Notes under the pieces: generated by a model
What the model was told of the DNA's origin: nothing
The model's database searches: none
The model's input: only the letters and a program-made list of their open reading frames with translations
From: Alphaproteobacteria bacterium
GTDB taxonomy: Bacteria; Pseudomonadota; Alphaproteobacteria; SHVP01
DNA length: 64,000 bases
Direction: 5' to 3'
Assembly: GCA_947473325.1 (NCBI GenBank)
Contig: CANJEJ010000004.1
Span: 4,060-68,059 of the forward strand
Made by a program: the position numbers and the translations under genes
Shown here: one piece after another, positions 36,998 through 52,300 of the stretch
Numbering within the stretch: the first letter of the stretch is position 1
How the letters are laid out: each line of letters starts with the position of its first letter

Positions 36998-38578
36998 TCA
37001 GTCGGCCAGCGACATCTCGTGGTAGTTCAGGTAGCGGTTGACGTTCTTGAAGTCGCGCAGCTTGTTGGAGATCGCATCCAGGTCCTGTGCCTCGTACAGG
37101 AACAGCGCGATCGCGTCGTCCCTCTGGATCTGGATGAGGTCGTGGATGAGCTGCTTGCGCTTGGCGACGTCGAATTCAGAGTTGATCTGCGTCACCAGCT
37201 TCTGCTCCTTCTCGACGCAACGGTAGACCTTGCCGCCCTTGTCACAGGTGTGGAACTGAATGGCGCCCATCGCGTCCATGGCCGGGGCGGAGTTCCAGCC
37301 GCTGATCCAGGCCGCGCCATCCCACGTCACATCGACGAACTTTTTCAGCCATTCCGGCAACTGGATGAGCTGCACCTTGGTGCGGATGCCGATCTTCTGC
37401 AGGTCGGCGCCCGCGCGCTGATGCCATTCCAGGTCGCCGGCCATATAGCCTTCGCGCACTTCGGCCAAGAGGTCGAAGCCATTGGGATAGCCCGCTTCGG
37501 CAAGCAGCGCCCTCGCCTTCACCGGATCATATGGATACGCCTTGACGTTCGGGTTGTGGCCGAAGGTGGGTGAGGCAACGCCCTGCCCCATACCCTGGCC
37601 ATAGCCCTGCAGCACTTCCTTCACCATGTCGTCACGGCTGATCGCCATGTTCATCGCCTGGCGCACGCGCGGGTCGGCCAGCGGCTTGATGTCGACGCCG
37701 GCTTTTGCGTTCATCTGGGTCAGCGCCCAGGTCAGCACCGTGGGCCCGGGCAGCGCGATGACCTTGCCGTTGGCCGCCTGCACTTCCTTGATGTTGTCGG
37801 GAGAGATGCCGATGATGACGTCGAGTTGGCCGGACGTGAACGCCTGGAAGCGGGCGGCACGCTCCGGCAGGTTGTTCACTTCAAGGCGCCGCACTTTCGG
37901 CGCACGGAACGACCCTTCGAAGGCGGTCATCTTCGCGGCATTTTCCTGCCAGGCGCCTTCCAGCTTGTAGGGCCCGGTCCCAACGGGGGCGTTGGCAAAG
38001 GCATCCACGCCGAGGTCAGCCCAGGCCTTTGGTGGCGTAACCAGCACGATGGAAATCTCGTTGGGCACGATCGGGTTCGGCGTCACCGTCTCGATCACCA
38101 CCGTCGTGTCGTCGACTGCCCGTGCGCTCTTGATGAACTTGGTGCGGCCGGCGACGACCGCTCCTTTGGCAAGTCCTTCCGGCGAGATCAGCCAGTTGAG
38201 CGTGGCGACGAGCGCGTTGGCGTTGAAGGCTTCGCCATTGGAGAACCTCACGTCAGAGCGCAGCTTGAATTCCCAGGTGCTGGGGCTCGTGTTCTTCCAC
38301 GACGAGGCGAGCGATGGAATCGGGTTGCCACCGCCATCCACCAGCGTCACGGGATCGAACATCGCATACCAGGTGAACATGCTGGGCGAGCCGAACAGCG
38401 TGTAGACATTGCCACGGCCCGGCGGCAGGCTGGCCACGCCGACGCGGATGGTTTTCTCCTGCGTGACGGCCTTGGCCTCGGGGCTCAGGGAGAAACCGGC
38501 CAGCAAGGCCGCGGCGCCAAACGCCAGCGTGCGCATCCCGGTGCGAACGGCATATCCAATGGGTTGATGCTCGGTCAT
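36998..38578 (-). CDS. ABC transporter substrate-binding protein, family 5
   Basis: The signal peptide reads MRTLAFGAAALLAGFSLSPEAKA. 526 aa. It is the first gene of the minus-strand operon. Confidence 0.8.
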   Translation of the reverse strand: MTEHQPIGYAVRTGMRTLAFGAAALLAGFSLSPEAKAVTQEKTIRVGVASLPPGRGNVYTLFGSPSMFTWYAMFDPVTLVDGGGNPIPSLASSWKNTSPSTWEFKLRSDVRFSNGEAFNANALVATLNWLISPEGLAKGAVVAGRTKFIKSARAVDDTTVVIETVTPNPIVPNEISIVLVTPPKAWADLGVDAFANAPVGTGPYKLEGAWQENAAKMTAFEGSFRAPKVRRLEVNNLPERAARFQAFTSGQLDVIIGISPDNIKEVQAANGKVIALPGPTVLTWALTQMNAKAGVDIKPLADPRVRQAMNMAISRDDMVKEVLQGYGQGMGQGVASPTFGHNPNVKAYPYDPVKARALLAEAGYPNGFDLLAEVREGYMAGDLEWHQRAGADLQKIGIRTKVQLIQLPEWLKKFVDVTWDGAAWISGWNSAPAMDAMGAIQFHTCDKGGKVYRCVEKEQKLVTQINSEFDVAKRKQLIHDLIQIQRDDAIALFLYEAQDLDAISNKLRDFKNVNRYLNYHEMSLAD

Positions 38579-38848
38579 GGCAACGCTCCCCTGTTCCCGT
38601 TGGTTTCGCCGCGCTCTGGGTCACGGTCACTTGCAGCTTAGCTGCAGACCACAACAGGAGAACCGAGGGGCAAGGGGCGGACAACCAACATCTGTTGAGG
38701 GGTAAATGCTAGTTTTTCTTTAGTCCGTCTTGCCAGACCAATTGTTCATACGAGCGGATGCCTGTTGATCGCGCGCCCACCGGGCGACGCACAACCGAGG
38801 CGCGTCCGGAACATCGAGTCCTTCCCGTGGCAGGAGGCTGGATGCGTG

Positions 38849-39283
38849 TCAGCGGGCTTCGGCTTTCAGGCCCGCCGCTTCGATGCCCGCGATGGCGCAG
38901 ACCTCGTCCTTGGGGGCTACGTCTCCCGCCACGCCGACAGCGCCCAGCAAACGACCCTCGGCATCGCGAATCAGCACGCCGCCGCCCGCGGGCATGAAAC
39001 GGCCCCCGGAAATCTGGCCGATGACGCTCATTACGCCAGGTCGTTCCATCAATCGTTCACCCGTCACCCCGGCCGGCCGCCGCATCGACACGCTGGCCCA
39101 GGCCTTGCCGATCGCCATATCGACATAGAGGAAACCCGCGTTGTCCTCGCGCTTCACCACAATGACGTGGCCGCCTGTGTCCACCACGGCGACTGCCTGA
39201 GGCTTGGTGCTGGTTTCCCGCGCCTTGGCAATTGCGGCATCGACAATGATGGTGGCACGGGCGAGGTCGAGGTCCAACGGCAT
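38849..39283 (-). CDS. GlcG/HbpS-like heme-binding protein (DUF336)
   Basis: 144 aa. AIAKARETSTKPQAVAVVDTGGHVIVVKREDNAG and the GG..I.D..G pattern are typical of the family. Confidence 0.65.
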   Translation of the reverse strand: MPLDLDLARATIIVDAAIAKARETSTKPQAVAVVDTGGHVIVVKREDNAGFLYVDMAIGKAWASVSMRRPAGVTGERLMERPGVMSVIGQISGGRFMPAGGGVLIRDAEGRLLGAVGVAGDVAPKDEVCAIAGIEAAGLKAEAR

Positions 39284-39286
39284 CTC

Positions 39287-40798
39287 CTATTCGGCGGCGA
39301 CTTTGGGGGCGCGCGCCCGGTCTTCCGCCACGACCTTGGCGGCTTCGGCCTCGATCGGCGTGCCCTTGAAGAAATTCGGGTTCATGCCGGTGTGCAGACG
39401 GACCGAGTTACGGAAGACGAAGTCCTTGTAGTCTTCGTCACTCATCTGGCCATGTTCGACGAATTCGTAGGATTCGGCCAGCGTCTCACGCGCCTCCTCG
39501 ACATCCCAGTGGCTGATGTCGGAACTGAAGATGGCGTTCAGTTTGGCGCCACGGCGGTTCACCTTGTCGGCGAAGGCCCAGGGCACCATGCGGTCATCGG
39601 CTTCGCAGCCGAAGAAGAAGTTGGGGATAAAGCGGTCGACAATGTCCTGTTTGCGCGTGATGCCGGAGAGGGCAAACTCCTCGAGATCCTCAGGCTTTTC
39701 CGGCCGCGACGTCCAGTAGTAGCCGTCCGTCGTGCGCAGCTGATCGAGCGCGCCCTGATGTGGCGCATCGCCGTATTTCGCCACCAGGTCGACCAGCAGC
39801 TTGCGGTCGATCGTTTCCGGCGCCAGATTCTCGCGCAGCGCGGTAGCGTTGCGTTTTTCCCAATGTTCGAACAGGTCGTTGTAGAGGCTACAGGCCCAGC
39901 CCACGCCGCCTTCCAGGAAGGCAACGCGCAAGCTCGGGAAGCGCTTCGTCACGCCGCCCATGAACATCGCCTTGCAGAAGGCCTCGCCAGCGGCGGCGAA
40001 ATGGCCAAGGTGATTGTAGACATAGCTCGAGATCGACGTGCGGTTCGGCCACCCCATGGTGCCCGAGTGGCAGGTCGGGGCGACACCAAGCTCGACGCAT
40101 TTGCGCCACAGCGGGTCGTAGTCATACTGGCTTTCGAATGCGAGCGGGTCGATCCAGTAGGCAAGCCCGCCGCGCGTGAGCGCCGCCGCCTTGCGGTCTT
40201 CCTCGGTGATCGGCCGGCGCACATTGCCTTCCATCACCATGCCCTTGAAGCCGAGCGTCTTGACGGCGAACTCAAGCTCTTCCACCGCCTCTTCCGGCGT
40301 GTAGACGGGAACCATCGCCGGCACGATCAACCGGTCCTTGTACGGACCATAGAGGTCGGCGTGCATCATGTTCATGGCGCGGCAGATACCGCGGCGCATC
40401 TCGGTGTTGTCGAGGCCGAGGAACAGCAGGCCCTGGCTCGGATACACGATCGACACGTCGACGCCGAATTCGTCGAGGCGCTCATACATCAGGCGTGGGA
40501 TCATGCCTGTCGCGCGGTCATGCGTGTTACGGGCGGGGATGAGGTAAAAGGGCGGCCGCTTCGTCGCGGTGCGGCGGCGCTGCTCCCAGCTCATGTCGTA
40601 CCAGCCCCAGGCCTTGCCGTCCTTCACCATGTCGACATAGCTATCAACCATGCCCTGGCCGCCGACACGCTTGATGTAGTCGATCAGGATGGGCTCGACC
40701 TCGATCAGGTGGCCGTCGCCATCGATCACGGGATGCCCAATTTTCGCCCTGACTTCTGCGGAAGGTGAGCGACCGCCGGTCTGCCTGCTGCGCGTCAT
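39287..40798 (-). CDS. amidohydrolase-family metal-dependent hydrolase
   Basis: 503 aa. IDGDGHLIE (HxH-equivalent) is near the N-terminus. A TIM-barrel hydrolase-like pattern is present. It lies 3 nt upstream of the glcG-like gene. Confidence 0.7.
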   Translation of the reverse strand: MTRSRQTGGRSPSAEVRAKIGHPVIDGDGHLIEVEPILIDYIKRVGGQGMVDSYVDMVKDGKAWGWYDMSWEQRRRTATKRPPFYLIPARNTHDRATGMIPRLMYERLDEFGVDVSIVYPSQGLLFLGLDNTEMRRGICRAMNMMHADLYGPYKDRLIVPAMVPVYTPEEAVEELEFAVKTLGFKGMVMEGNVRRPITEEDRKAAALTRGGLAYWIDPLAFESQYDYDPLWRKCVELGVAPTCHSGTMGWPNRTSISSYVYNHLGHFAAAGEAFCKAMFMGGVTKRFPSLRVAFLEGGVGWACSLYNDLFEHWEKRNATALRENLAPETIDRKLLVDLVAKYGDAPHQGALDQLRTTDGYYWTSRPEKPEDLEEFALSGITRKQDIVDRFIPNFFFGCEADDRMVPWAFADKVNRRGAKLNAIFSSDISHWDVEEARETLAESYEFVEHGQMSDEDYKDFVFRNSVRLHTGMNPNFFKGTPIEAEAAKVVAEDRARAPKVAAE

Positions 40799-40953
40799 TC
40801 GAGCATCCCCTTTGAAGGTGCGATCTTTTTGATCCTATGATCCGATCCGGCGCTCCTGCTGAGGCGCCTGTGTCGGTTCCGCACACGACTACTTGGACAG
40901 CACGCGTCGCACAAACGAGATTTGGTTTACGAATTTCATAGCGAGGCTAGGGG

Positions 40954-41874
40954 ATGCAGATAGGCCGCCGGATGCCACCGCTGAACGCCCTTCGTGCATT
41001 CGAGGCGGCAGGCCGCCATTTGAGCTTCACCAAGGCGGCCGACGAGCTCTGCGTAACCCCCGCGGCGATCAGCCAGCAGGTAAAGACCCTCGAGGGTTAT
41101 CTGGGCGTAAAGCTTCTGCGCCGCAAGGGCAGAGGTCTGGAGCTGACAGACAAGGGGCGCGCTTGTCTGCCTGAGGTGCATGAGGGATTTGACCGCCTTT
41201 CCGCAAGCATGGAACGACTGGCGCAACGCGATGCCGGCGAACTTCTGACTGTGAGCGTATCCCCCTGCTTTGGAAACATCTGGCTGGCGCCGCGACTGCC
41301 CCGCTTTCAGGCCATGTATCCCGATATCGACGTGCGCGTGCTCGCCATCATTCATCAGCTCGCCGCCGGCCGCGACAATTCCGACATCGCGATCCGATAC
41401 ATTCCAGGCCCCTTTCCTGCTTCAAAGGTGGAAGCCTTGATGCCGGAGCACGTGTTTCCGGTGTGCAGCCCCGAGCTCGCCGAGAGCAAGCCGCCTCTGC
41501 GAGTGCCGCACGATTTGCGCCACCACCGCTTGCTGCATGACGAGACGGCGCGCGCGATCGAAGGATTTCCGGATTGGCAGCGATGGCTGATGGCGGCGGG
41601 CGTGAAAGGCGTCGATTTGCAGCGCGGATCCCGCCTCACGCTCTCATCCATGGTCGTGCAGGCGGCGATCCGGGGCGAGGGCGTAGCCCTGGCGCGCAGC
41701 GTCCTGGTTGAAGACGATCTTGCCTCTGGCCGACTCGTGCGGCCATTCGCCTTCGACTACCCGCAATCGTTCAGCTACTACCTGGTGACCGCAGAGGCTG
41801 ACTATCAGCAGAAGAAAATTCGTGCTTTCTGGAGCTGGATATTGGACGAGGCGCGTGCCGCCTCGGGCATCTAG
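40954..41874 (+). CDS. LysR-family transcriptional regulator (GcvA-like)
   Basis: The N-terminal HTH reads LNALRAFEAAGRHLSFTKAADELCVTPAAISQQVKTLE. A C-terminal substrate-binding domain follows. Confidence 0.85.
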   Translation: MQIGRRMPPLNALRAFEAAGRHLSFTKAADELCVTPAAISQQVKTLEGYLGVKLLRRKGRGLELTDKGRACLPEVHEGFDRLSASMERLAQRDAGELLTVSVSPCFGNIWLAPRLPRFQAMYPDIDVRVLAIIHQLAAGRDNSDIAIRYIPGPFPASKVEALMPEHVFPVCSPELAESKPPLRVPHDLRHHRLLHDETARAIEGFPDWQRWLMAAGVKGVDLQRGSRLTLSSMVVQAAIRGEGVALARSVLVEDDLASGRLVRPFAFDYPQSFSYYLVTAEADYQQKKIRAFWSWILDEARAASGI

Positions 41875-42128
41875 GCCTCCCTTCGTCGTTTAGATTTTCT
41901 TCATTGTGCATGGCATGCGGCGTCTTCAGACTCCCCGCATCTTTTTGACAACCTGCGTGTTTTCAGTGAACTCGCAAGCCGGCTGAACGAACTTCTGCAA
42001 AACAGTCTGGGCCTGCGAGTTTGGGCATGTCGTGAAAATCTGAGATCTGTCCAGCCATGAAATGGTCCCTGGCGGCCATTCCTCGGCGCATGCACCGCTC
42101 GGCTCCAAACGATTTCTGGGAGGCAAGA

Positions 42129-43301
42129 ATGAAACAAATTTCTCGCGCAGCTGCCGTTGTGGCCGTGCTGTCGGGTTTTTCCTTTTCGACGAGCTTTGCG
42201 CAAGCTCCCTCGGGCGAACCAATCGTCATTGGCGTGCCAATTCCCATCAGCGGTGGCAGCGCCGAAGTTGGTGAACGGTCCCGCCGCGGCGCTATTCTTG
42301 CCATGGAAGAGATCAACGCCAAGGGTGGCATTCTTGGCCGCCCCCTCAAGCTCGACATTCAGGACGACAAGTGCGACCCAGCGCAGGGCGTCAGCGCCGT
42401 TCGCAAGCTCATGTCGCAGCCGGAGGTTGCCGTCCTGCTGGGCGGCGCCTGCTCGTCGGTCGTGCTCGCCGCCATGCCCATAATCAAGGGCAACATCGCC
42501 TTCCTGACTTCGCAGGCGAGTTCTCCGGCGATTTCCAAGCAAGCGGGCGTGGGCGGCAACGAATGGATGTTCCGCACCAACCCGCCGGACGACTTCGCCG
42601 CCGCGACGATCGTCGAAGTGATGATCAAGGATCACAAGAAGACCAAGGTCGTCATCACGGCCCAGAATGACGAGTTCGGCCGCGGCGCCGCCGAAGGCTT
42701 CAAGAACGCCGTCGAGCAGCAGGGCGGAACAGTCCTCGGCATCGAATACTTCCCCGTTGCCGGCCCGTACGACTTCTCCAGCATCATCACCAAGTTCAAG
42801 GCGCGCTCGCCGGAAGCCGTGATCTTCGCCGGTACGATCGAAAGCGGCGTGCCTATGGTCAAGGAAATGGGCACACAGTCGATGAAGCTGCCAATCTATG
42901 GCCGCGGCCTGCCACTCGTGGAGGCCACTTTCAAGGCGATCGGACCAACGTTGGCGGACGGCATCCATGGCGCCGACCAGTGGTATGCAGAGGTCTCTGA
43001 GCCTAAGAGCCGAGAGTTCGCCCAGAAATATGAAAAGCGCTGGGGCGAGGCGCCGCGCTTCAACTCCTTCGCCATGTATGAGGCGCTCGACGTCGCCAAA
43101 GCAGCCATCACGTCCGCTGGTTCTACCGACCGTGCCAAGATCCGCGATGCCATCGCCAAGACGACCTATGTGTCGCTGACCGGCGTGCCGATGAAGTTCG
43201 ACGCGAACAATCAGGCGCACAACAAGATCTATGTCGGCCGCGTCAACTGCAGCGGGGGCGATTGCAAGGTCACCGTGGTGGGCGACCGGATCCAGCCCTG
43301 A
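42129..43301 (+). CDS. Liv-type (branched-chain amino acid/amide family) ABC substrate-binding protein
   Basis: A GGGAGG SD precedes it. A signal peptide is present. IVIGVPIPISGGSAEVGE...LDIQDDKCDP is the type I periplasmic-binding-protein pattern. Confidence 0.85.
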   Translation: MKQISRAAAVVAVLSGFSFSTSFAQAPSGEPIVIGVPIPISGGSAEVGERSRRGAILAMEEINAKGGILGRPLKLDIQDDKCDPAQGVSAVRKLMSQPEVAVLLGGACSSVVLAAMPIIKGNIAFLTSQASSPAISKQAGVGGNEWMFRTNPPDDFAAATIVEVMIKDHKKTKVVITAQNDEFGRGAAEGFKNAVEQQGGTVLGIEYFPVAGPYDFSSIITKFKARSPEAVIFAGTIESGVPMVKEMGTQSMKLPIYGRGLPLVEATFKAIGPTLADGIHGADQWYAEVSEPKSREFAQKYEKRWGEAPRFNSFAMYEALDVAKAAITSAGSTDRAKIRDAIAKTTYVSLTGVPMKFDANNQAHNKIYVGRVNCSGGDCKVTVVGDRIQP

Positions 43302-43314
43302 GCGCCAATCCTGA

Positions 43315-43518
43315 GTGAGTAAGTCGATGTCGGATCCTCTGGTCGAATCGCTGCGCATGCTGGCGCGCCAACCGGGTATTTCCCCCCTTGGCGACGACCT
43401 GGAGCGCGCCGCGGCTCTCTATCGCCACTTTGATGGCGCCATCGTAGACCTTCGGAAGGAAGCACAGGCCGTGCTCGAAGCCGAAACGCACGATTCCTCA
43501 CGCACAACGAAGCCATGA
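43315..43518 (+). CDS. small protein (63-67 aa), AtzG/DUF4089-like partner of the downstream amidase
   Basis: GTG at 43315 or ATG at 43327. An ATGA overlap links it to the amidase start. Its size and position mirror the AtzG-AtzE arrangement. Confidence 0.4.
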   Translation: MSKSMSDPLVESLRMLARQPGISPLGDDLERAAALYRHFDGAIVDLRKEAQAVLEAETHDSSRTTKP

Positions 43519-44894
43519 CTTCGCCCTGTGACCTGACGGCCGCCGCGCTGCTGGCGGCCTATCGCGCACGACAGCTTTCGCCCGTGGACGTCGTGCGTGC
43601 CTGCCTCGACCGGGCTGCCGCGCAGGACAAGCGGCTGAACGCCGTGCTCTGCCGGGCCGGCGAGATGGCCCTGCAGATCGCGCAACGCGCCGAGACACGC
43701 TGGAAGGACGGCAGCGCCGGACTGCTCGAAGGCATTCCCTTCGGCCTGAAGGACGTCATCGAAACTGGCGACATGCCGACCACCTATGGCACCAAGGGCT
43801 TGGTAGGGCCGCGACGCGACGCCGAGGTTGTGCGCCGCCTGAAGGCTGCCGGTGCCATTCCGCTGTTCAAGCTGCAGACCAACGAAATCGCCTTCGGCGC
43901 CGTGCAGAACCCGCACAACGGATCGGTCGCCAACCCGTGGAACGCTGCGCGAATGGCGGGCGGTTCCTCCTCCGGGTCGGGTGCCGCCGTCGCCGCCGGC
44001 TATGTGCCCCTCGCCCTCGGCACCGACACCGGCGGATCCGTCCGTTCGCCGTCGGCCTATTGCGGCATCACCGGCCTGAAGCCGACCTCTGGCCTCCTGC
44101 CCGTAAGCGGCATCAGCGCGGTGGCGCCCAACCTCGACGCCGTCGGCCCGATGGCCCGCAGCGCGGAAGACATTGGCCTCGCCATGGCGGCGCTGACTGC
44201 TACCGGGTCGGCGTCTGGTTCTTCCGCGGCAATCATCAGAACCACAGACAGCCTGAAGGGTATTCGCATCGGCGTCGTGGAAGGCTGGGCCTTCGATGTG
44301 CTCGAACCTGACGTCGACCGCCTGTCGCGGGCAGCCATTCAGGATCTCGCCCGCCTGGGGGCGCAGGTGTCCCCCGCTGCTGACACCCGCCTCGATCTTG
44401 CCTGGCAGGCAGGCTGGATCATCATGATCGCCGAATCGAGCGGCGAGTATGTCGACCACCTGCGTCACGGCGCCGCCGTCGACCCGTCGCTGCGTGTGCG
44501 GCTGTGGTCGGGCACGCTGATCAGCAGCACCGACTATCTGGCCGCGCGGCGCGTGCAGGATCGCCTGGTTGCCGGATTGCCAAACGTGTTTGCGCAGCAC
44601 GACGTTTTGGTACTGCCGACCTCGGTCACGGCGGCGCCCGGCGTGGCAGCCACCGCCGTCAAGCTGAACGGCAAGGAATACCCACGCATCGACATCGCGA
44701 CCCGGCTGACGATCGGAGCCAACGTGCTCGGCGTGCCCGCGCTCACCCTGCCCTGCGGGTTCGACCGCGACGGCCTGCCCGTCGGGCTGCAGTTCCTTGG
44801 CCCCCGGAACGGGGAAGCGAAGGTCATCGCCGTTGCGCAGGCCTACCAGGCTGCGACAGACTTCCACCAGCTACGCCCCGCAGCACACGCCTGA
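43515..44894 (+). CDS. amidase-signature family amidase (GatA/AtzE-like)
   Basis: GGSSSGSGAAVAAG, LGTDTGGSVRSPSAYCG and the Ser-cisSer-Lys triad context are present. 459 aa. Confidence 0.85.
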   Translation: MTSPCDLTAAALLAAYRARQLSPVDVVRACLDRAAAQDKRLNAVLCRAGEMALQIAQRAETRWKDGSAGLLEGIPFGLKDVIETGDMPTTYGTKGLVGPRRDAEVVRRLKAAGAIPLFKLQTNEIAFGAVQNPHNGSVANPWNAARMAGGSSSGSGAAVAAGYVPLALGTDTGGSVRSPSAYCGITGLKPTSGLLPVSGISAVAPNLDAVGPMARSAEDIGLAMAALTATGSASGSSAAIIRTTDSLKGIRIGVVEGWAFDVLEPDVDRLSRAAIQDLARLGAQVSPAADTRLDLAWQAGWIIMIAESSGEYVDHLRHGAAVDPSLRVRLWSGTLISSTDYLAARRVQDRLVAGLPNVFAQHDVLVLPTSVTAAPGVAATAVKLNGKEYPRIDIATRLTIGANVLGVPALTLPCGFDRDGLPVGLQFLGPRNGEAKVIAVAQAYQAATDFHQLRPAAHA

Positions 44895-44956
44895 TGCGCT
44901 TTCCTCAATGACGGTCCGGACGCCCTGCCTGGGCGCGGGACAAGAATACGGACGGC

Positions 44957-45826
44957 ATGATTGAGTTCATCCAGCAGGTTCTGAACGGCGTCGGCCTTGG
45001 CGCGTCCTATGCGCTGCTCGCCGTCGGCCTCGCACTGCTTCTGGGCGTCGGCCGCGTAGGCAATTTCGCGCATGGTGACATTGCGATGCTCGGTGGCTAT
45101 GCCCTGCAGATCATCGTCGCAGCGGGCTTCGCCTATTATTACGCCAGCATTGCCGCCGTCGTAGTTGCCGCAATCATCAGCTGGATCGCCTATCACGTGG
45201 TGTTTCGCTACCTGGTGCTGAGCAGAAACACCAACGTTGTCTTTGTCGGGTCCATGGCGCTCAGCGTCGCGATCGAGAGCGCCGCTCTGCTGCTGCTCGA
45301 TGCCACGCCGCGGCAGGTGACAAGCCCGCTGGCGGGCTCGCCGCTGATCATGGGACCCTTCGTCATGAGTGGGCCGCGCTGGTTCTCGGTCGTGGTCGGT
45401 GGCGGTGTCGTCCTCGCGCTGGTCGCCTTCCTGCGCTACACCGATCTTGGCCGCAAGATCACGGCAGTGGGCGAGAACCGCGAAGCCGCCCAAGTGATCG
45501 GGATCAGCCCGGAACATGCGCTCGCCATGACCTTCGTGGTCGCAGGCCTGCTTGCCGGCGTGGCCGCCATCCTGCTGGTTCCCATCCTTGGCGTTTTCCC
45601 GGCCATGGGCATCCGCCTCATGCTGAAAGGCTTTGCCATCGTCATCATGGGCGGGATGAGTTCCATCCCCGGCGCCTTTGCGATGGCGATGCTGGTCGGC
45701 ATCAGCGAAAGCCTGGCAGTTGGCTATGTCGCCTCCGACCTCGGCGACGGCGCCGTCTTCCTGCTGCTGATCGTATTCCTGCTGCTTCGGCCGACCGGGC
45801 TTGCCCGCTTGACGGCCCAGTCATGA
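44957..45826 (+). CDS. Liv-type ABC permease (LivH-like)
   Basis: The product begins MIEFIQQVLNGVGLGASYALLAVGLAL. 289 aa with 8 TM helices. Confidence 0.85.
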   Translation: MIEFIQQVLNGVGLGASYALLAVGLALLLGVGRVGNFAHGDIAMLGGYALQIIVAAGFAYYYASIAAVVVAAIISWIAYHVVFRYLVLSRNTNVVFVGSMALSVAIESAALLLLDATPRQVTSPLAGSPLIMGPFVMSGPRWFSVVVGGGVVLALVAFLRYTDLGRKITAVGENREAAQVIGISPEHALAMTFVVAGLLAGVAAILLVPILGVFPAMGIRLMLKGFAIVIMGGMSSIPGAFAMAMLVGISESLAVGYVASDLGDGAVFLLLIVFLLLRPTGLARLTAQS

Positions 45827-46815
45827 CTGACCTCGCGTCGGGGCGCGCGGGCACGGTGCAACCCACCTCGCCCACTAAGTGGCCGGTGCGGCTGGCCGTC
45901 GCGGTCGCGGCTCTGGGCTTTCCCTTTGTCGTTGCCAACGACTACCAGCTTCACGTCGGCATCTTCGCGCTGTTCGTCGTCGGCATCGGCATTGCCTATG
46001 ACAGCTTTGTCGGCGCCACCGGCTACCGCTCCTTCGCCCATGCCGCCTTCCTGGCGGTTTCCGCCTACGCCACCGCCATCCTGTCGACTAACGGCATCGA
46101 TGTCGGGCTGGCCTGGCTGGCCGGCGTCGTCGCCAGTGCGGTGACGGCGCTGGCGATCGGCGCGGTCGTCTTACGCCGGGTGCGCGGCTTCGTTTTCAGC
46201 ATCGTGACGCTCGGCTTCGGTGTGATCGTCTATGTCGTCGCCAACGCCTGGGTGGAGGTGACGCGCGGGCCGCAGGGCATCTACCAGATCCCGTCGCTCA
46301 GCATCGGCACCTTCGGGCTCAACAGCCTGACGCGCTACTACTACGCGGTGCTGGTGCTGGCGATGCTCGTGCATATCGTCTCGCTGCTGTGGCTGCGTGG
46401 CGCGCGCGGCCGGCGCCTGCTCGCCATTCGCGAGAACGAAGACCTTGCCGAGGCCTGTGGCCTCAACGCCTATCTGGCCAAGCTCTCGGCCTTCGTCTTC
46501 AGCGCCGTTCTGATGGGCGTGATGGGTGGCTTCTATGCCCAGTACTACACGATCGTGACCCCCGATCTCGCCTGGCTGCAGTGGATCATGCTGCTGATGG
46601 CGATCGTCGTCATCGCCGGTCCCGGCCACCGCATCGGTGTGATCTGCGCCTCGCTCTTCCTGGTGATCGGACCGGAAATCCTGCGCGCGGGCCAGTCCTT
46701 CCGCGAGCTGCTGTCGGGCCTGCTCATGCTCATCACCGTGCTCGTCTCGCCGGAAGGCTGGACCCCCACCATCAAGCGTTACCTGGCGAGGCGCCGTGCT
46801 GCTGCACGCCGATAA
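45823..46815 (+). CDS. Liv-type ABC permease (LivM-like)
   Basis: An ATGA overlap links it to the LivH-like gene. 330 aa. Confidence 0.85.
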   Translation: MTDLASGRAGTVQPTSPTKWPVRLAVAVAALGFPFVVANDYQLHVGIFALFVVGIGIAYDSFVGATGYRSFAHAAFLAVSAYATAILSTNGIDVGLAWLAGVVASAVTALAIGAVVLRRVRGFVFSIVTLGFGVIVYVVANAWVEVTRGPQGIYQIPSLSIGTFGLNSLTRYYYAVLVLAMLVHIVSLLWLRGARGRRLLAIRENEDLAEACGLNAYLAKLSAFVFSAVLMGVMGGFYAQYYTIVTPDLAWLQWIMLLMAIVVIAGPGHRIGVICASLFLVIGPEILRAGQSFRELLSGLLMLITVLVSPEGWTPTIKRYLARRRAAARR

Positions 46816-47527
46816 TGTTCGTGTCCGCTTCGGCGGCGTCACCGCCGTCGACGGCGCCAGCCTGCAGGTCGCGGCCGGGGAATTCCTTGGCCTGATCGGA
46901 CCCAATGGGTCGGGCAAGACGACGCTGTTCAACAGCATCACCGGCGACCAGAAGGTCTCGGAAGGCCGCATCCACTTCAACGGTCAGGACGTGACCGGAT
47001 GGGCCAAGTACAAGCGGGCGCGCGCTGGCCTCGCACGCACCTACCAGAACGTCCAGGTCTTCCCGGAAATGCTGGTGACGGAGAACCTGATCTTCGCGGC
47101 AGAGGCGCGCGGCCAGTCGCCGTCGCCCCAACGCGTCCGCGAGCTGGTCGATTTCCTGTCGCTGACGCATCTCGCCCATGAGCGGGCGGGCAACCTGTCC
47201 TATGGCCAGAAGAAACTACTCAGCATCGGCCTTGCGGTCATAAGCGACCCGCAGATCCTGTTGCTCGATGAGCCGATGGCGGCGGTCAATCCCGTCATGG
47301 TGGACCTGATCGCGGAGCGGTTGGACGCCCTCAACAAACTGGGCGTCACCATCGTGCTGGTTGAGCACAACCTTCCCATCGTGCTGAAGCATTGCAGCCG
47401 CGTGGCCGTGCTGAATTTCGGCCGCATCATCTACAACGGCCCGGCGACGGGTGTGCGAGCGGACGACGGTGTGGCCGAAGCCTATCTGGGTCGAGCCTAC
47501 AGTCTGCCCGCCAAGGTGCCGTCATGA
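46796..47527 (+). CDS. Liv-type ABC ATPase (LivG-like)
   Basis: GTG start overlapping the LivM-like gene by 20 nt. Walker A is GPNGSGKTT; the signature is LSYGQKKLL. Confidence 0.85.
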   Translation: MLLHADNVRVRFGGVTAVDGASLQVAAGEFLGLIGPNGSGKTTLFNSITGDQKVSEGRIHFNGQDVTGWAKYKRARAGLARTYQNVQVFPEMLVTENLIFAAEARGQSPSPQRVRELVDFLSLTHLAHERAGNLSYGQKKLLSIGLAVISDPQILLLDEPMAAVNPVMVDLIAERLDALNKLGVTIVLVEHNLPIVLKHCSRVAVLNFGRIIYNGPATGVRADDGVAEAYLGRAYSLPAKVPS

Positions 47528-48276
47528 CGGCCGTGGGCCTGCCTGCGCTCAAGGCCACGGGCATCCGCGCCAGCTATGGCGTCGGCGAGATCATTCGCGG
47601 CATCGATTTCGAGGTCGCCGCCGGCGAGGTGGTCGTGATCATCGGTCCGAACGGCGCCGGCAAGTCGACCTTCCTGCGCGCGCTCTACGGTCTCATCCAG
47701 ACGACCGGCCTGGTGATGCTGGGCGGCCAGCGGATCGATGACGTGGCGGCAGACCGGCGGCTCGACCTCGGCCTTGCCTTCGTGCCGCAGGGCCGCTGCA
47801 ATTTCGCCGGACTGACGGTGCTGCAGAACCTTGAGGCCGCCTTGCTGCGCCTGCCGCGCGCCAAACGGGCCGCCGCGCTGGAAAGCACGCTTGAGCTGTT
47901 CCCGCCGCTGCGCCGGCTGTTGCGCCGCCGCGCGGGAAACGCCAGCGGCGGCGAGCAGCAGCTTGTCGAGATGGCGATGGCGCTGGTGAGCCAGCCCAAG
48001 GTCGTGTTGCTGGACGAACCGACGCTCGGCCTGTCGCCCATCGCCAGCGAATTCGTCTTCGACACCATCAAGGCGCTGCGCAAGACCGGGACCGGCGTCG
48101 TTATCGTCGAACAGAACGCCCGCCAGGCGCTGGAGATCGGCGACCGCGCCTATGTCTTCGAACAGGGCGTCAGCCGCATCGTCGACCGTTGCGACCGGCT
48201 GCTGGGCGACCGGCGCATCCGCGAAGTCTTCCTTGGCGGCAGCGTCGACGACCTTCCCCTCACGACCGAGTCATAA
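47524..48276 (+). CDS. Liv-type ABC ATPase (LivF-like)
   Basis: ATGA overlap. Walker A is GPNGAGKST; the signature is ASGGEQQ. Confidence 0.85.
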   Translation: MTAVGLPALKATGIRASYGVGEIIRGIDFEVAAGEVVVIIGPNGAGKSTFLRALYGLIQTTGLVMLGGQRIDDVAADRRLDLGLAFVPQGRCNFAGLTVLQNLEAALLRLPRAKRAAALESTLELFPPLRRLLRRRAGNASGGEQQLVEMAMALVSQPKVVLLDEPTLGLSPIASEFVFDTIKALRKTGTGVVIVEQNARQALEIGDRAYVFEQGVSRIVDRCDRLLGDRRIREVFLGGSVDDLPLTTES

Positions 48277-48392
48277 GGGCGGCAGGCGATCGGCCTAGCG
48301 CGGAACAGCACGTCAAAGCGTTCCAGTGTTTTCCGTAACCGCGTCGGCCAGCACACGCCGCGCTTGCAGCGCTCGCAAATAGTCGGCCGCGC

Positions 48393-49037
48393 CTAGGAAG
48401 GCGCCGAAGGCAAAACGATGCCGCCTGAGCGAGCAAGCTCCTCTCGAAGAGACTTGAGCAATGCTTCCTTCGATAGCAGTCCCGGGATGGCAATCCTCGC
48501 GTCGATCACGAAGGTCGGCACCGACCCAATTCCCCATTGCTCCCGGGTCAGGCGCAGCAGACCCTCACATTCCTTCCGGTATGTGTCGTTATCGAGAGCT
48601 GACCTGAAGGATTGAGCGTCAAGGCCCAGCTCCTGGGCGCATCGGGTAAGAACTTCGGGTTTTCCAATATCCAGTTCGTCCTGAAAAAACGCCGTGAACA
48701 TACGGTGGTTGTACTCGCGAGCCCTTCCCTGATCGCGTGCAAACAGCGCTCCTTCAAAGGCAAGACGAGTGTAGGGCTGAGGCGAAACGCGCGGGAGAAC
48801 GATCTTGATGCCCATCCGCTCGGCGAGCGGGTAGACCGAGTTACGCCAGCCGTCCTGGAGATAATCGTCTTCTGGCTTGAGCGTGGGAGTGGGATGGGGT
48901 CTCAGCTCGAATGGCAGCCACTCGACCACCGCATCGCTACCGAGCTCCTTGATTGCCTCGTCGAGAGGGCCCTCGGCCAGAAAGCAGTAGGGGCAGACGT
49001 AATCCGAAACGACTTGAATCTTCATAGGCACTGTCAC
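48393..49037 (-). CDS. DsbA-family thiol:disulfide oxidoreductase (FrnE/HCCA-isomerase-like)
   Basis: The CPYC active site lies in IQVVSDYVCPYCFLAEGPL. Confidence 0.75.
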   Translation of the reverse strand: MTVPMKIQVVSDYVCPYCFLAEGPLDEAIKELGSDAVVEWLPFELRPHPTPTLKPEDDYLQDGWRNSVYPLAERMGIKIVLPRVSPQPYTRLAFEGALFARDQGRAREYNHRMFTAFFQDELDIGKPEVLTRCAQELGLDAQSFRSALDNDTYRKECEGLLRLTREQWGIGSVPTFVIDARIAIPGLLSKEALLKSLREELARSGGIVLPSAPS

Positions 49038-49389
49038 GCGTACCGCTCCCGGTCCTGTTCATGGGAAAGATAAAATGATCGCAGGCGGTGCGCCAGAGGG
49101 CACGATCCGCGTGGAGGTTCAGCAGCTTGTCGTGGCCCTGAGCACGATTGTGGTGCGACGCGAGTCGGATCAGCCTGGGAACCGCCAGACATGGATCGAT
49201 CCCAATTGACACTCATGGGCTTCCTGGGACGCTTGGCAATCAGTGAGCTGCCGCCGCGCTGCGAGTCTGGGAACAAAATCGCGTAGCCTTTGGGGTATGA
49301 TCCTCTTGTCCTGCCAGAGCCGACCTCACCGATGCTTCATACGAACACTGCTTACTTGCTGAAACGACCAGCTGACAGAGGGCTCAATC

Positions 49390-52300
49390 GTGCTGACCCT
49401 TTTTAGGCCCAAAGCATCCGGTCCGCCCCAAGGTTACAAATACTGGGCGTTTATCAGCTACAGCCATCGCGATTCGTCGTGGGGCGATTGGCTACACCGC
49501 AAGCTGGAGACTTTCGTCGTACCGGCCCAGATCATTGGGAAGGACATCAGCGCTGGTGTGCCGCGGCGTCTTTATCCAGTGTTTCGCGACCGCGAAGAAC
49601 TACCAACGGCAGCGGCCCTCAGCTCCAACATCGAGACGGCGCTGCGTGAGTCGAAATATCTCATCGTCATCGGTTCACCGAATGCGGCACGTTCGCTCTG
49701 GGTCAACAATGAGATCGAGACCTTCAAACGACTTGGGGGTTCGGACCGAATCCTTTGTCTTGTCGTCGACGGAGAGCCGAATGCCTCGGCTGACCGTGCC
49801 GGCGAAGAGTGTTTTCCGCTCGCTCTGCGCTACCGCTATGACGCCGCGGGCCAGCGCACCGACGTGCGCAGCGAACCGCTGGCGGCGGATGCCCGTCCGG
49901 GCAAGGATGGCAAACGCAACGCGCTGTTGAAGATCATTGCCGGTGTACTCGGCATCGACTATGCGAAGCTCAAGGATCGTGAAGGTCGTCGCCGTGCAAG
50001 ACAGCTGGCCGCAGTCGGCTCCCTTGTCGGCGCGGCCATTCTACTGTTCGCCGGGCAGCAATTTCTTGCCTACCGCAATCTTGCCGTCGAGCACGCCGCG
50101 ACCGAGCGGGCGTTGCTGGAATCCGAACTCCGCCTCGCTGAAAGCCAGGTGGCGCGGGGTGGGATGCTGGAAGAACGCAATGACTACACCGGGGCGAAGA
50201 ATGCCTATGCCCAGGCCTATGCCATACAGGCGCGTCATGCGGTGTCAGACCTGGCGGCGCGGCTCGGCTACCTTTCGGCGCAGGAACATCTGCCGGACCC
50301 GCTGCTGCGCTTCAGGGCTGACACGCCAGTTTCCGCGCTTGCCGTTGATGGTACAGGTTGCTGCCTGGTCACCGGACATGACGACGGCAGTATTGCGGTC
50401 TGGAAGACAGACGCCGGCCAGCCGCGCAGAACCCCTGTATCGACCGCCCCGATTGCGGGATTGGGGCTCATCGCAGGTTCGTCTCAGGCGGTTGTCGTCG
50501 ATCGTCTCGGCCGCGTTGTAGTCGTCGATATCGACGCCGGTAGTAGTCGCGTGGCGAGCGATGGCGCACTCGGCACAGTGAGTGCGGTTGTCGTCATGCC
50601 GAACGGTCAGGTGCTTTTGGCCGTGACATTGCCGCCCGCCCCTTCGGCCGCCGACCCGAGCAAGCAGGAACCCCGCTCTCGGGTTATTCACTACGACGCT
50701 CTGACCCAGAACATAGTACGGGACTTCCTGTTTCCCGGACCGGTCCGCGCGCTGGCTCTAAGCCCTGACGGCACATCGATCTTTGTTGCCGACGAGATCG
50801 CAGTAGAAATCGTCTTTGACCCTGGCCCCGCTATTCGACGCCGTTTTGTCGGCAACAAGGCGAGCAAAGACTTTTCCAGCCATGGCTTCGTCTATCAGTT
50901 CCGCATCGACAGCATGGCGGTCTCGGCGGACGGCGGCACACTCGCGCTGGGCTATAGCGATGGCATCCTGGAGTTTTGGGATCTCAATACAGGCAAACAG
51001 ACCTACGGCACGCGGGTGCTCGTTGGCAGCATCGGTACCCTTCACGATGGCAACGAGGGAAAAGCCTTTCTCTTCGGCGACAATGACGGTCGAGTGAGAG
51101 CGGTGGAACAAAAGAAGCGGCGCAACCTGCACCGTCACATTGCGCCAGTCGTTGCGCTGGCGCTGACGCCCGACGGCACCACGATCGTCAGCACGGATGG
51201 CCATGATATTGCGCTGTACAGTGGCGGTGACAGCGCCACATGGCTGCACCGGATCGGGCACGACGCTGGCATGATGCCGACCGCGGATTTCTCGCCCGAC
51301 TCGCGTCTGATGGTTACCCACGAATTGCTTGATGAGACGATTCACGTTTGGAGTGTCGCCAGCCAAGTCCGGCTGGTTTCTATTGCTTTTGACGATACGG
51401 TGACGGCGGCGTACTTCGTCAGCGCTAACGAACTGTTAGTGGCATTGAGCAGCGGCAGGGTGTTTTTGTACGATCTCGTCAAGCGCCAGGAGACTAGCCG
51501 CCTGCGAGAAGCAGGTGGCTCAGAGATCGACGCCTTCACCCTCTCTAAGAATCGGCAGCGTTGGGCAGTCATGTCGGGCGCACAGGTCACCGTCGCTGAT
51601 GTGCACGGTAAGAATCAGACCCATCTGCCCGTCGCCGTCAGCAAGCAAGGGGCTGTCCTGACATTGTCGCACGACGGCTCACGCATCGCCGTCGCCGCTG
51701 CTGGCCAAGTGACGGTTTGGACGGCTGCCGATCGTCGTCGCTTGCAGCAAATCGATCTCCCTCCGGGCCAAGCCATCGGTGCGATGGTACTAAGTGACGA
51801 CGACACCATGCTGGTGACGGCACATGAGGACGCTCGCCTCAGAGTCTGGGACATTCCCAGTGGTCGCATGGTGCGCACGATCCGCGGTCATGAAGGCGGT
51901 CTTGTGACCGCACTTGCGTTGATGCCGGACAATCGGACCGTCATTTCTGGCGGGTTCAACGGCGATCTCCGTTTCTGGGAAATCGGCGAAGGCAATGAAC
52001 TGCACAAGGTAGACGTCGGTCCGCCGATTCGGAAACTGACGGTTTCGCCGACGGGTGTCCTTGCCTTAGGCGTCTTCGGTGACTCTAACGTCTATGGCGA
52101 GATCGATCTCGTCCTGCTCGACAGTACGCCCGGTCGAACCTTAATCGAAGCATCCGGTTCGTTCAGCCGCGGACCGCAGGCTATTGCAACGCGTAAGCAA
52201 GCCTTCGTGAGCATGGCCGATTGGTACCGGACGCGCGGCCGTTGTCCTGAGGCGATCAGACTTTACGATCTTGCCTGGCAAGTGGACCGGCGATTCCCGG

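Follow-up and report, generated by a model that had tools for sequence, protein, structure and literature searches.

The locus described here lies within a 64,000-nucleotide stretch of DNA, hereafter the window, and comprises a forward-strand operon in which a mini-protein gene and an amidase gene are enclosed by the genes of a Liv-type ABC importer (Table 1). The mini-ORF frame runs from GTG 43315 or ATG 43327 to 43518 (67 or 63 aa), and its last four nucleotides, ATGA, also open the amidase gene. An initial annotation had described this overlap with a 459-aa amidase, the position of the pair between a Liv-type binding gene and LivHMGF-like genes, and a LysR regulator upstream; the ORFs and the shared nucleotides were read from the sequence, the Pfam matches agree, and the regulator is of the GcvA type and on the same strand. 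The binding-protein ORF is open from 42057, while its homologues are called at the length tabulated. The LivF/UrtE-like gene is followed by a DSBA-family gene on the opposite strand. Rfam gave no match within 40500-49500, and promoter and terminator scans returned signal at or below chance level.

Table 1. Features of the amidase operon and its upstream regulator, in window coordinates
Feature	Position	Strand	Basis
LysR-family (GcvA-type) transcriptional regulator	40954..41874	+	HTH_1 and LysR_substrate domains
Liv/HAAT-type periplasmic binding protein, 390 aa, with signal peptide	42129..43301	+	Peripla_BP_6 E=4e-69
Mini-protein gene, 63 aa	43327 (ATG)..43518	+	conservation, dN/dS, hhalign
ATGA stop/start overlap of mini-protein and amidase genes	43515..43518	+	read from sequence
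Amidase-signature (Ser-cisSer-Lys) amidase, 459 aa	43515..44894	+	PF01425 E=9e-98
LivH-like ABC permease	44957..45826	+	BPD_transp_2 E=1e-30
LivM-like ABC permease; 4-nt overlap with LivH-like gene	45823..46815	+	BPD_transp_2 E=7e-30
LivG/UrtD-like ABC ATPase	46796..47527	+	ABC_tran E=3e-32
LivF/UrtE-like ABC ATPase; 4-nt overlap with LivG/UrtD-like gene; last gene of the operon	47524..48276	+	ABC_tran E=2e-28

The gene order binding protein, mini-ORF, amidase, LivHMGF is common to the homologous loci L001, L005, L128, L129 and L044, and the overlap is kept as ATGA or GTGA in L001, L128, L129, L044 and L047. The reading given in the initial annotation depended on such conservation of the mini-ORF, which is indeed retained with the same overlap. 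Flanking genes vary from locus to locus, LysR excepted; in L001 the LysR orthologue (67% identical) adjoins the same operon in inverted, divergent orientation, so the linkage survives rearrangement. The window LysR scores 335 bits against NF008352 GcvA (cut-off 288) and is likely the regulator of the operon. The five transporter components match at Pfam or superfamily level only, the Liv/Urt equivalog cut-offs being unmet: the binding protein reaches 108 bits against the LivJ-type model (cut-off 477) and 102 against UrtA (cut-off 493), and the LivG/UrtD-like ATPase scores 180 bits with both UrtD and LivG, each under its cut-off. The solved structures nearest to the binding protein are amino-acid-binding LivJ-like proteins.

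The 459-aa ORF had been called an amidase-signature enzyme from its GGSSSGSGAAVAAG motif, which occupies residues 149-162, and PF01425 matches the protein over its full length. K79, S151-S153 (GGSSSGSG) and S175 (TDTGGSVR) do not vary among its relatives and coincide in alignment with the catalytic motifs of GatA and AtzE, and both the family profile and the Lys, cis-Ser, Ser triad are present. The best PDB sequence match is GatA 4wj3 (E=7e-58). R329 aligns with GatA Arg358, the arginine being kept, and Thr396 with GatA Asp425. The amidase falls under every NCBIfam cut-off, and the contigs of species-representative genomes, scanned with it, held no relative above 37% identity.

The length of the mini-ORF alone is weak evidence for a gene, since in this DNA of 65% GC it is itself overlapped by two antisense frames, 95 and 73 aa long. 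Such frames evidently arise easily here, and the mini-protein has no Pfam, NCBIfam or PDB sequence match, two points in favour of a chance frame in GC-rich DNA within a merely long intergenic region. That explanation is refuted by the evidence from relatives and retains next to no probability. Differences per codon position (8/9/22 and 13/5/24) show a third-position bias in the mini-ORF frame, and dN/dS against three relatives is 0.22, 0.18 and 0.22, the amidase and the binding protein ranging lower, at 0.08-0.13 and 0.06-0.08 respectively. Read in its alternative frames, the same stretch yields 0.77-3.0 in four cases out of five, the exception being an antisense frame at 0.28-0.34. Constraint is concentrated in the first 47 codons (dN/dS 0.13-0.15), and the C-terminal tail is poorly conserved (0.27-0.49). 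Independent gene calls place homologues in 5 protein clusters with 67-95% identity, and the mini-protein is still recognisable in L044, beside an amidase of 57% identity, and is homologous to a large family described below. ATG 43327 is the likely start, since the homologues all open with MSDPLVESL and gene callers give 63 aa. The substitution pattern thus indicates that the 63-aa ORF encodes a real mini-protein under purifying selection. Its gene co-occurs and co-diverges with that of the amidase and the coupling is conserved, the mini-protein evolving more quickly than the adjoining proteins (its identity is 76%, that of the amidase 92%). A six-sequence alignment, run exhaustively as a profile against 1.8 billion representatives, recovered the protein's own cluster; five further matches were repetitive proteins hit through multiple short stretches and were judged spurious. 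This subtype, here termed the window type, has so far been found only in Liv-type operons on a handful of metagenome contigs.

A metagenome scan revealed ORFs of 68-80 aa upstream of amidases that are 36-50% identical to the window amidase. We define their products here as the 'WIENGG' family, proteins of 68-80 aa for which Pfam and NCBIfam have no model, with the consensus ..AaDRGL.l...l..A...H..fR..L..LR.v.L.flPPYIEP.TA..WIENGG and with members from metagenomes of soil and other sources (e.g. L049-L126, L130, L131). A family HMM built from 23 WIENGG-type proteins, the window type excluded, picks the window-type proteins out of a background of 15,375 six-frame decoys (E=3e-4 to 9e-3), and hhalign aligns the window mini-protein with the family over 47 columns (Prob 94.1%, E=1.3e-7). 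Homology covers the N-terminal ~47 residues, the alignments stopping near residue 47: the helix-loop-helix pattern ..A.drGL.l....l..A...H..fR..L..LR is present in the window mini-protein, and the C-terminal L.flPPYIEP.TA..WIENGG motif is absent from it and from all six close homologues. The pair in the window also shares with the family the position directly upstream of the amidase and the 4-nt (A/G)TGA overlap, but where other members have the C-terminal motif, the window type extends the helix and ends in a polar tail that varies. Should the family bind the amidase chiefly through PPYIEP..WIENGG, the window type may bind differently or less tightly.

Genomic context ties the family to the amidase. 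A 4-nt stop/start overlap ends 37 of the 40 non-redundant HMM hits, and in 33 of these 37 the downstream frame is of amidase length or runs to the contig end; conversely, a mini-ORF is detectable beside 35 of the 43 amidases of the combined clade for which upstream DNA is available. Pairs adjoin Opp-type ABC, MFS, CoA-transferase or Liv-type genes, so the amidase, not the transporter, is the constant partner. In the amidase tree, mini-protein type tracks amidase clade, the window type, WIENGG type, AtzG and GatC each having a clade of its own, and the partner amidases of the window and WIENGG types form sister clades. P0014, which at 45% identity is the nearest amidase beyond the subtype, lacks a neighbouring mini-ORF, so the partner may be dispensable in some members. 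Profiles and gene neighbourhood together place the window mini-protein in a widespread amidase-coupled family that lacks a Pfam or NCBIfam model.

The initial annotation held that the locus mirrors AtzG-AtzE. The arrangement does so, with a coupled small ORF, an amidase, a Liv operon and a LysR gene; the family label does not hold, as profiles, cut-offs, the lack of atzH in the operon and the tree all indicate. An affinity of the small ORF for DUF4089/AtzG or GatC was not borne out by profile searches: the mini-protein matches neither PF13318 (AtzG-like/DUF4089) nor HpxX (NF033624) in its 63-aa or its 67-aa form, nor GatC, even at E<=10, and the hhalign comparisons were not significant (P=0.035 and Prob 1.5% against a 16-sequence AtzG-family alignment; P=0.22 against GatC). 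The same tests matched pADP-1 AtzG to PF13318 at E=8e-9 and to HpxX at E=2e-4, and the GatC of metagenome locus L085 to the GatC profile at E=6e-23. More distant kinship is suggested by hhalign of the WIENGG family against AtzG (P=0.0037; weak, in register) and by the family HMM, against which 13 of the 16 AtzG-family proteins score higher than any amidase does. Literature searches found nothing on DUF4089, nor on the amidase signature with GatC and a small subunit, and those on 'GatC-like' found fungal GatF work only.

Were the pair nevertheless a true orthologue of AtzG/AtzE or HpxX/HpxY, it would act on 1-carboxybiuret, oxalurate or a related ureido compound. The gene order with LysR and ABC transporter genes, as seen around many atzG-atzE-atzH clusters (PMC6219798), the presence of AtzE 6c62 among the best PDB sequence matches of the amidase (E=9e-52) and a P...RA.A..HF motif in the mini-protein that is in register with the AtzG alignment speak for such orthology. 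The amidase, however, scores 262.5 bits on NF006631 (cut-off 461) and 243.3 on TIGR02715 (cut-off 425.75), and the generic models PRK06169 and PRK07488 outscore both while likewise staying under their own cut-offs; in the tree it joins the WIENGG-type clade rather than AtzE. Neither the window protein nor its homologues carry the C-terminal E.AEIYRPAPFPA, which is invariant in the 16 AtzG-family proteins. The operon also lacks atzD, atzF and atzH/hpxZ (DUF3225, NTF2-like), a LivH-like permease gene following that of the amidase where hpxZ follows atzE in pADP-1, and the binding protein is closer to amino-acid binders than to urea binders. Taken with the failure of the mini-protein to match the PF13318 and HpxX models that real AtzG matches, these observations make orthology very improbable.

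An AF2 monomer model of the mini-protein (pLDDT 81) consists of a helix at residues 4-13, a loop and a helix at residues 22-59. This succession of short helix, loop and long helix is what we take to be the N-terminal layout of GatC and AtzG. Foldseek of the model against the PDB gave a best match of E=4, with no GatC or AtzG chain among the hits; the weak matches (E=4-10) were generic helical proteins, bHLH factors included. The same layout is predicted in a natural fusion protein (P0044, 557 aa), which bears an N-terminal GatC-like module joined to an amidase part 40% identical to the window amidase; AF2 models the module with helices at 6-15 and 25-43 at pLDDT 85-91, no other sequence of the alignment covering it.

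The mini-ORF might instead be a leader or coupling device that feeds ribosomes to the amidase start, its peptide being without function. No feature of the family is better conserved than the 4-nt overlap, the stretch leading up to the amidase start (...caacgaagccATGA) contains no clear Shine-Dalgarno sequence, and the tail is the poorly conserved part noted above, all of which would suit a pure device. Such a device would not preserve the peptide, whereas the first 47 residues are under purifying selection, the N-terminal region is homologous across amidase clades that are merely 36-57% identical, and the mini-protein is confidently predicted to fold; we regard a functionless peptide as quite improbable. 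A real protein with another role, such as a regulator, a chaperone for some other component of the operon or an adaptor between amidase and transporter, is also unlikely, if less markedly so. The isolated model is a helix-loop-helix with the generic matches just described, the subtype no longer carries the C-terminal motif found elsewhere in the family and ends in its variable tail, and the loop accounts for three of the four changes that separate the mini-protein from that of a near-identical assembly, all of which would accord with such a role. Against it, the family accompanies amidases whichever transporter or regulator adjoins and nearly always overlaps the amidase start by 4 nt, a natural fusion to an amidase exists, and Pfam and NCBIfam searches detect no DNA-binding or other domain.

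We consider it probable, by analogy with better-known small subunits, that the mini-protein serves the adjacent amidase as a stabilising, non-catalytic subunit, within an operon for amide import and hydrolysis. AtzE, which acts as 1-carboxybiuret hydrolase with AtzG in Pseudomonas sp. ADP, is insoluble without its tiny partner, and small subunits hold the amidase soluble and folded in both cases, AtzG for AtzE and GatC for GatA. In the operon described here, ribosomes finishing the mini-protein would restart on the amidase at the ATGA overlap, giving the two chains side by side and in roughly equal amounts. The N-terminal helix-loop-helix would then pack on the amidase and keep it soluble and folded. 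Under LysR control, the Liv-type ABC importer would take up an amide compound, which the Ser-cisSer-Lys amidase would cleave to ammonia and an acid, serving as a nitrogen source. We infer physical binding and the stabilising role, and likewise the direction of transport and the class of substrate. As to the latter, weak clues point to an amino-acid-like amide, for example one similar to glutamine or isoglutamine, whose configuration may be D; these clues depend on residue roles taken in part from general background. Among neighbouring genes, the only one suggestive of a substrate is a D-Glu_cyclase gene in L044.

We give roughly even chances to the broader proposal that the window-type and WIENGG-type proteins form a third, widespread lineage of GatC-derived obligate amidase subunits for which no Pfam or NCBIfam model exists. 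If so, a large share of the soil 'GatA-like amidases' would be two-subunit enzymes whose small subunit annotation has missed, and the window type, which does without the C-terminal clamp motif, would represent a minimal subunit. Biocatalysis and the degradation of pollutants and plastics both draw widely on amidase-signature enzymes, examples being urethanases, nylon hydrolases and herbicide pathways. Should the partners be required, co-expressing them would be a simple fix for many failed expressions of 'GatA-like' amidases, genome annotation should gain a family model, and the window type would be useful for mapping the essential part of the partner. The operon itself appears to be an ordinary uptake-and-hydrolysis system; the locus and its relatives suggest that small amidase partners are far from confined to those annotated as AtzG or GatC.

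Three known systems bear comparison with the operon. Importers of the Liv/HAAT type that are linked to amide use (LivJHMGF, UrtABCDE, AmiC/FmdD-type) share its five-component architecture and Pfam families; here, in contrast to all of these, the binding-protein gene is separated from the permease genes by those of a cytoplasmic enzyme pair, and, compared with LivJHMGF and UrtABCDE, every component lies far under the equivalog cut-offs. GatC-GatA offers the parallel of a non-catalytic small subunit encoded just upstream of an amidase-signature enzyme. The window mini-protein is nevertheless of 63 aa, not ~95 aa, without the long C-terminal extension of GatC; the amidase scores 247 bits on the GatA model TIGR00132 (cut-off 481), the operon contains no GatB gene, and its setting is catabolic transport, not translation as for GatCAB. 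AtzG-AtzE resembles the pair in that the gene of a ~65-aa protein directly precedes that of an amidase-signature amidase, the operon serving nitrogen-compound catabolism and having a LysR regulator nearby, and apparently also in the short helix, proline-containing loop and long helix, modelled for the window protein and inferred from alignments for AtzG. In the tree, AtzE and the window amidase both belong to a wider small-partner group next to GatA. The atzG and atzE genes of pADP-1 are 2 nt apart, whereas the window pair overlaps by ATGA, and the window operon has its own Liv-type importer and lacks the atzH that completes atzG-atzE-atzH clusters, many of which have a LysR regulator and an ABC transporter nearby (PMC6219798). 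Judged by sequence, the mini-protein resembles AtzG and GatC yet is a member of neither family, and by analogy a functional resemblance to both is plausible.

The small ORF and the 459-aa amidase-signature ORF that the initial annotation had described as overlapping in an ATGA are both present in the sequence, and its account of the neighbours (a Liv-type binding gene, LivHMGF-like genes and a LysR regulator) is borne out by Pfam and NCBIfam. The amidase start codon opens one base before the mini-ORF stop codon, so the two genes share the ATGA. An orthologue of the LysR regulator, 67% identical, also adjoins the operon in the related contig L001, though inverted there. The regulator could control the divergent amidohydrolase cluster besides, or in place of, the amidase operon; that cluster is missing from the L001 version of the locus. 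Further along the window lies an ORF of TIR-WD40 architecture, which may encode a defence or signalling protein; its domain calls were taken from Pfam marks on the identical gene of L005, a contig from another metagenome assembly.

Coordinates of the features discussed, in the window unless a relative's contig is named
Feature	Contig	Coordinates (strand)	Description
Amidohydrolase cluster	window	36998-40798 (-)	Divergent from LysR gene; 503-aa Amidohydro_2, HbpS/GlcG-like, SBP_bac_5 binding protein
LysR regulator	window		GcvA-type; directly upstream of operon, same strand
Binding protein	window	likely start 42129	Peripla_BP_6; upstream of mini-ORF; 390-aa precursor with signal peptide; same call in homologues
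Mini-ORF	window	GTG 43315 or ATG 43327 to TGA 43516-43518 (+)
Amidase ORF	window	start ATG 43515	459 aa
Permeases and ATPases	window		Two BPD_transp_2 permeases, two ABC ATPases; downstream of amidase, joined by 4-nt or 20-nt overlaps
TIR-WD40 ORF	window	49390-52449 (+)	1019 aa; N-terminal TIR domain (ThsB_TIR/TIR_2), then WD40 beta-propeller repeats
D-Glu_cyclase gene	L044	7299-8096	PF07286; between amidase and permeases, overlapping stop/start
Small coupled ORF	L021	5669-6004	...LSDARAxELAxEVxRLNAxxxxxxxxLxFxDEPxxF...
Small coupled ORF	L023	290-532	Same type as in L021
Mini-protein homologue	L045	~3520-3703 (+)	Window type, without gene call
Triple amidase cluster	L130	7001-13098	Three amidase-signature genes in a row, on a 3.9-Mb genome contig
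Coupled ORF	L029	5625-5969	~115 aa, before amidase
Coupled ORF	L030	5586-5933	~115 aa, before amidase

The amidase matches the amidase-signature family over its full length (PF01425, E=9e-98) and carries GGSSSGSGAAVAAG; Lys79, Ser151-153 and Ser175 are all conserved, lining up with the catalytic motifs of GatA and AtzE. Against NCBIfam it scored under every curated cut-off: 300 bits for PRK06169 (cut-off 506), 298 for indoleacetamide hydrolase (532), 262 for AtzE (NF006631; 461) and 247 for GatA (TIGR00132; 481).

A 63-codon open frame alone is no proof of a gene in DNA of 65% GC, and two further ORFs (95 and 73 aa) overlap the mini-ORF in antisense. The comparative data settle its status. Five protein clusters of homologues (67-95% identity, 62-66 aa) were found among 5.8 billion proteins, and the order binding protein, mini-ORF, amidase, permeases is kept on every contig long enough to show it; conservation in homologous loci, on which the initial annotation had staked its proposal, was thus found. 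Compared with three relatives, the mini-ORF gave dN/dS of 0.22, 0.18 and 0.22 (amidase 0.08-0.13, binding protein 0.06-0.08), with differences by codon position of 8/9/22 and 13/5/24. Four of the five other frames gave 0.77-3.0, the exception being an antisense frame at 0.28-0.34. Constraint sits in the first 47 codons (0.13-0.15), the tail being looser (0.27-0.49). All homologues open with MSDPLVESL, so translation probably begins at the ATG. The window shares its ATGA stop/start overlap with L001, L128, L129 and L047; L044 has GTGA instead. Most informative among the relatives is this last contig, where the amidase has diverged to 57% identity and an ORF of 70 aa still stands at the same place with the same overlap (38% identity to the window mini-protein over 39 residues, pairwise E=1e-6). 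We are highly confident that the mini-ORF is a genuine gene and linked to the amidase.

Over 16,192 aligned bases, the window and L005 differ at only four positions (37521, 43373, 43381 and 43387), the last three falling within 15 bp in the mini-protein loop. All three are non-synonymous, giving QPGISPL in the window and QRGIAPV in L005, and the R...V version also occurs in other homologues. Each adjoins a C or G run, so these substitutions could stem from errors in sequencing, from a multi-nucleotide event or from genuine differences between strains.

The mini-protein itself matched nothing in Pfam, NCBIfam or PDB sequences, even at E<=10, and when its profile was run against 1.8 billion cluster representatives, only its own cluster and repetitive false positives came back. 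Proteins P0006-P0010 (220-571 aa, with 53-63-residue repeats) matched the profile through many short stretches, with E down to 2e-7, and were set aside as repeat or low-complexity artefacts. Metagenome contigs were then scanned with an alignment of the closest amidases, yielding 80 loci. Amidases 36-50% identical to the query almost always have a 68-80-aa ORF directly before them, with the approximate consensus ..E.f.aiAaDRGL.l..erle.A...H.kfR.eL..LR.v.L.flPPYIEP.TA.rWIENGGR; neither Pfam nor NCBIfam has a model for this WIENGG family. Trained on 23 members but no window-type sequence, an HMM picked the window-type proteins out from among 15,375 six-frame decoy ORFs at E=3e-4 to 9e-3, and profile-profile comparison of the family with the window type gave Prob 94% and E=1.3e-7 over 47 columns. 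By these sequence profiles, the window mini-protein is a divergent member of the wider family. Its N-terminal two thirds are common to the family; in place of the conserved C-terminal PPYIEP..WIENGG it has a longer helix and a polar tail that varies. It represents a truncated subtype, so far seen in few metagenome assemblies only.

A neighbour-joining tree of 100 amidases from the fetched loci, built without bootstrap, placed the window-type amidases with P0014 and P0013, sister to the WIENGG-associated clade. AtzE forms the next group together with some alphaproteobacterial amidases that have yet another coupled small ORF type (L021, L023), and beyond it lies the GatA clade with true GatC. 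Neither the L021 nor the L023 small ORF matched our locally built AtzG, GatC and WIENGG HMMs, and that of L021 had no Pfam match. The small-protein type tracks the amidase clade, as would be expected of co-evolving partners. Upstream sequence is available for 43 amidases of the window-plus-WIENGG clade: a mini-ORF is detected by HMM before 35 of them, and of the other eight, three are coupled to a small ORF whose sequence was not recognised. Of 40 HMM hits left after removal of redundancy, 37 finish in an (A/G/T)TGA overlap. In 33 of these, the frame that follows is as long as an amidase or reaches the contig end; the four exceptions are L126 and L068, whose amidases start a few bases further upstream, L008, truncated by the contig end, and an orphan ORF in L045. 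The pairs adjoin Opp-type ABC, MFS, CoA-transferase or Liv-type genes, which leaves the amidase as the constant neighbour of the mini-ORF.

P0014 (45% identical) is the closest amidase without an adjacent mini-ORF. About 4 kb upstream of it, across an oppositely oriented transporter and asparaginase block, lies the L045 mini-protein homologue (...VLRALAAERGWHPEDDQIDRALARYEEIASALRQLRSDW..., HMM domain E=4e-10), which may have been left as a relic or may serve as a trans-acting partner. In L130, the first amidase is preceded by a coupled 69-aa ORF, and the second and third each have a small ORF coupled to the 3' end (59 and 58 aa, respectively); this cluster adjoins Opp-type ABC and MFS transporter genes.

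The evidence on the substrate amounts to hints. The structures nearest to the binding protein are LivJ-like amino-acid binders, not urea or amide binders; of the LivJ positions that we take to be functionally important, Ser79 is kept, Thr102 is Ser, Glu226 is Asp, and Tyr202 and Tyr18 are changed. At the positions of GatA Arg358 and Asp425, both presumably functional residues there, the amidase has a retained arginine and a Thr, respectively. The D-Glu_cyclase gene of L044 is the only gene-context clue to the amidase product (D-glutamate?). Together these point loosely to an amide resembling an amino acid; such a substrate, possibly glutamine- or isoglutamine-like and possibly in the D form, is a tentative and rather doubtful candidate.

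The best-supported reading, which we consider moderately probable, is that the mini-protein is a non-catalytic amidase subunit. Translational coupling would produce it in step with the amidase, which its helix-loop-helix would bind and stabilise; the operon, presumably under control of the LysR protein, would take up an amide and hydrolyse it as nitrogen source. There is nothing unusual about the amidase/importer operon itself; of more interest are how broad the unannotated partner family is and how nearly universal its 4-nt coupling, both of which bear on the annotation and expression of environmental amidases.

AtzG offers a precedent for the proposed role: with AtzE it forms an obligate heterotetramer, AtzE being insoluble without it (PMC6219798). 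The AtzG-AtzE label of the initial annotation itself found no support, as neither the defining profile matches, the AtzG C-terminal motif, an AtzE equivalog score nor, in the operon, an accompanying atzH was found. In the same tests real AtzG from plasmid pADP-1 matches PF13318 (E=8e-9) and HpxX (E=2e-4) whereas the mini-protein does not, which places it outside the AtzG-like family as defined. Sequence links to AtzG and GatC are weak yet consistent in register: hhalign gave P=0.0037 for the WIENGG family and P=0.035 for the window type against AtzG, the WIENGG HMM ranked 13 of 16 AtzG-family proteins above all ~120 amidases of a mixed set, and the aligned positions are identical across the comparisons. 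AtzG and GatC, accepted as related on structural grounds (PMC6219798), reached only P=0.029 by the same method, so undetected homology at such distance says little.

The AF2 model of the mini-protein (pLDDT 81) has a helix at 4-13, a loop and a helix at 22-59, and Foldseek against the PDB returned generic helical matches only. P0044 is a natural fusion of 557 aa whose amidase part is 40% identical to that of the window; its first 55 residues are GatC-like (HMM E=0.0012, in a single comparison) and, in a region not covered by other sequences of the alignment, are modelled by AF2 as helices 6-15 and 25-43 (pLDDT 85-91), followed by a disordered linker and the amidase body. In two Vulcanimicrobiota MAGs (L029, L030), the coupled ORF has, by eye, an N-terminus like a twin-arginine signal peptide and a GatC-like remainder, which would hint at export of an amidase that has a small partner. 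The mini-protein/amidase pair of the window probably works like AtzG-AtzE and GatC-GatA, while being a member of neither family.
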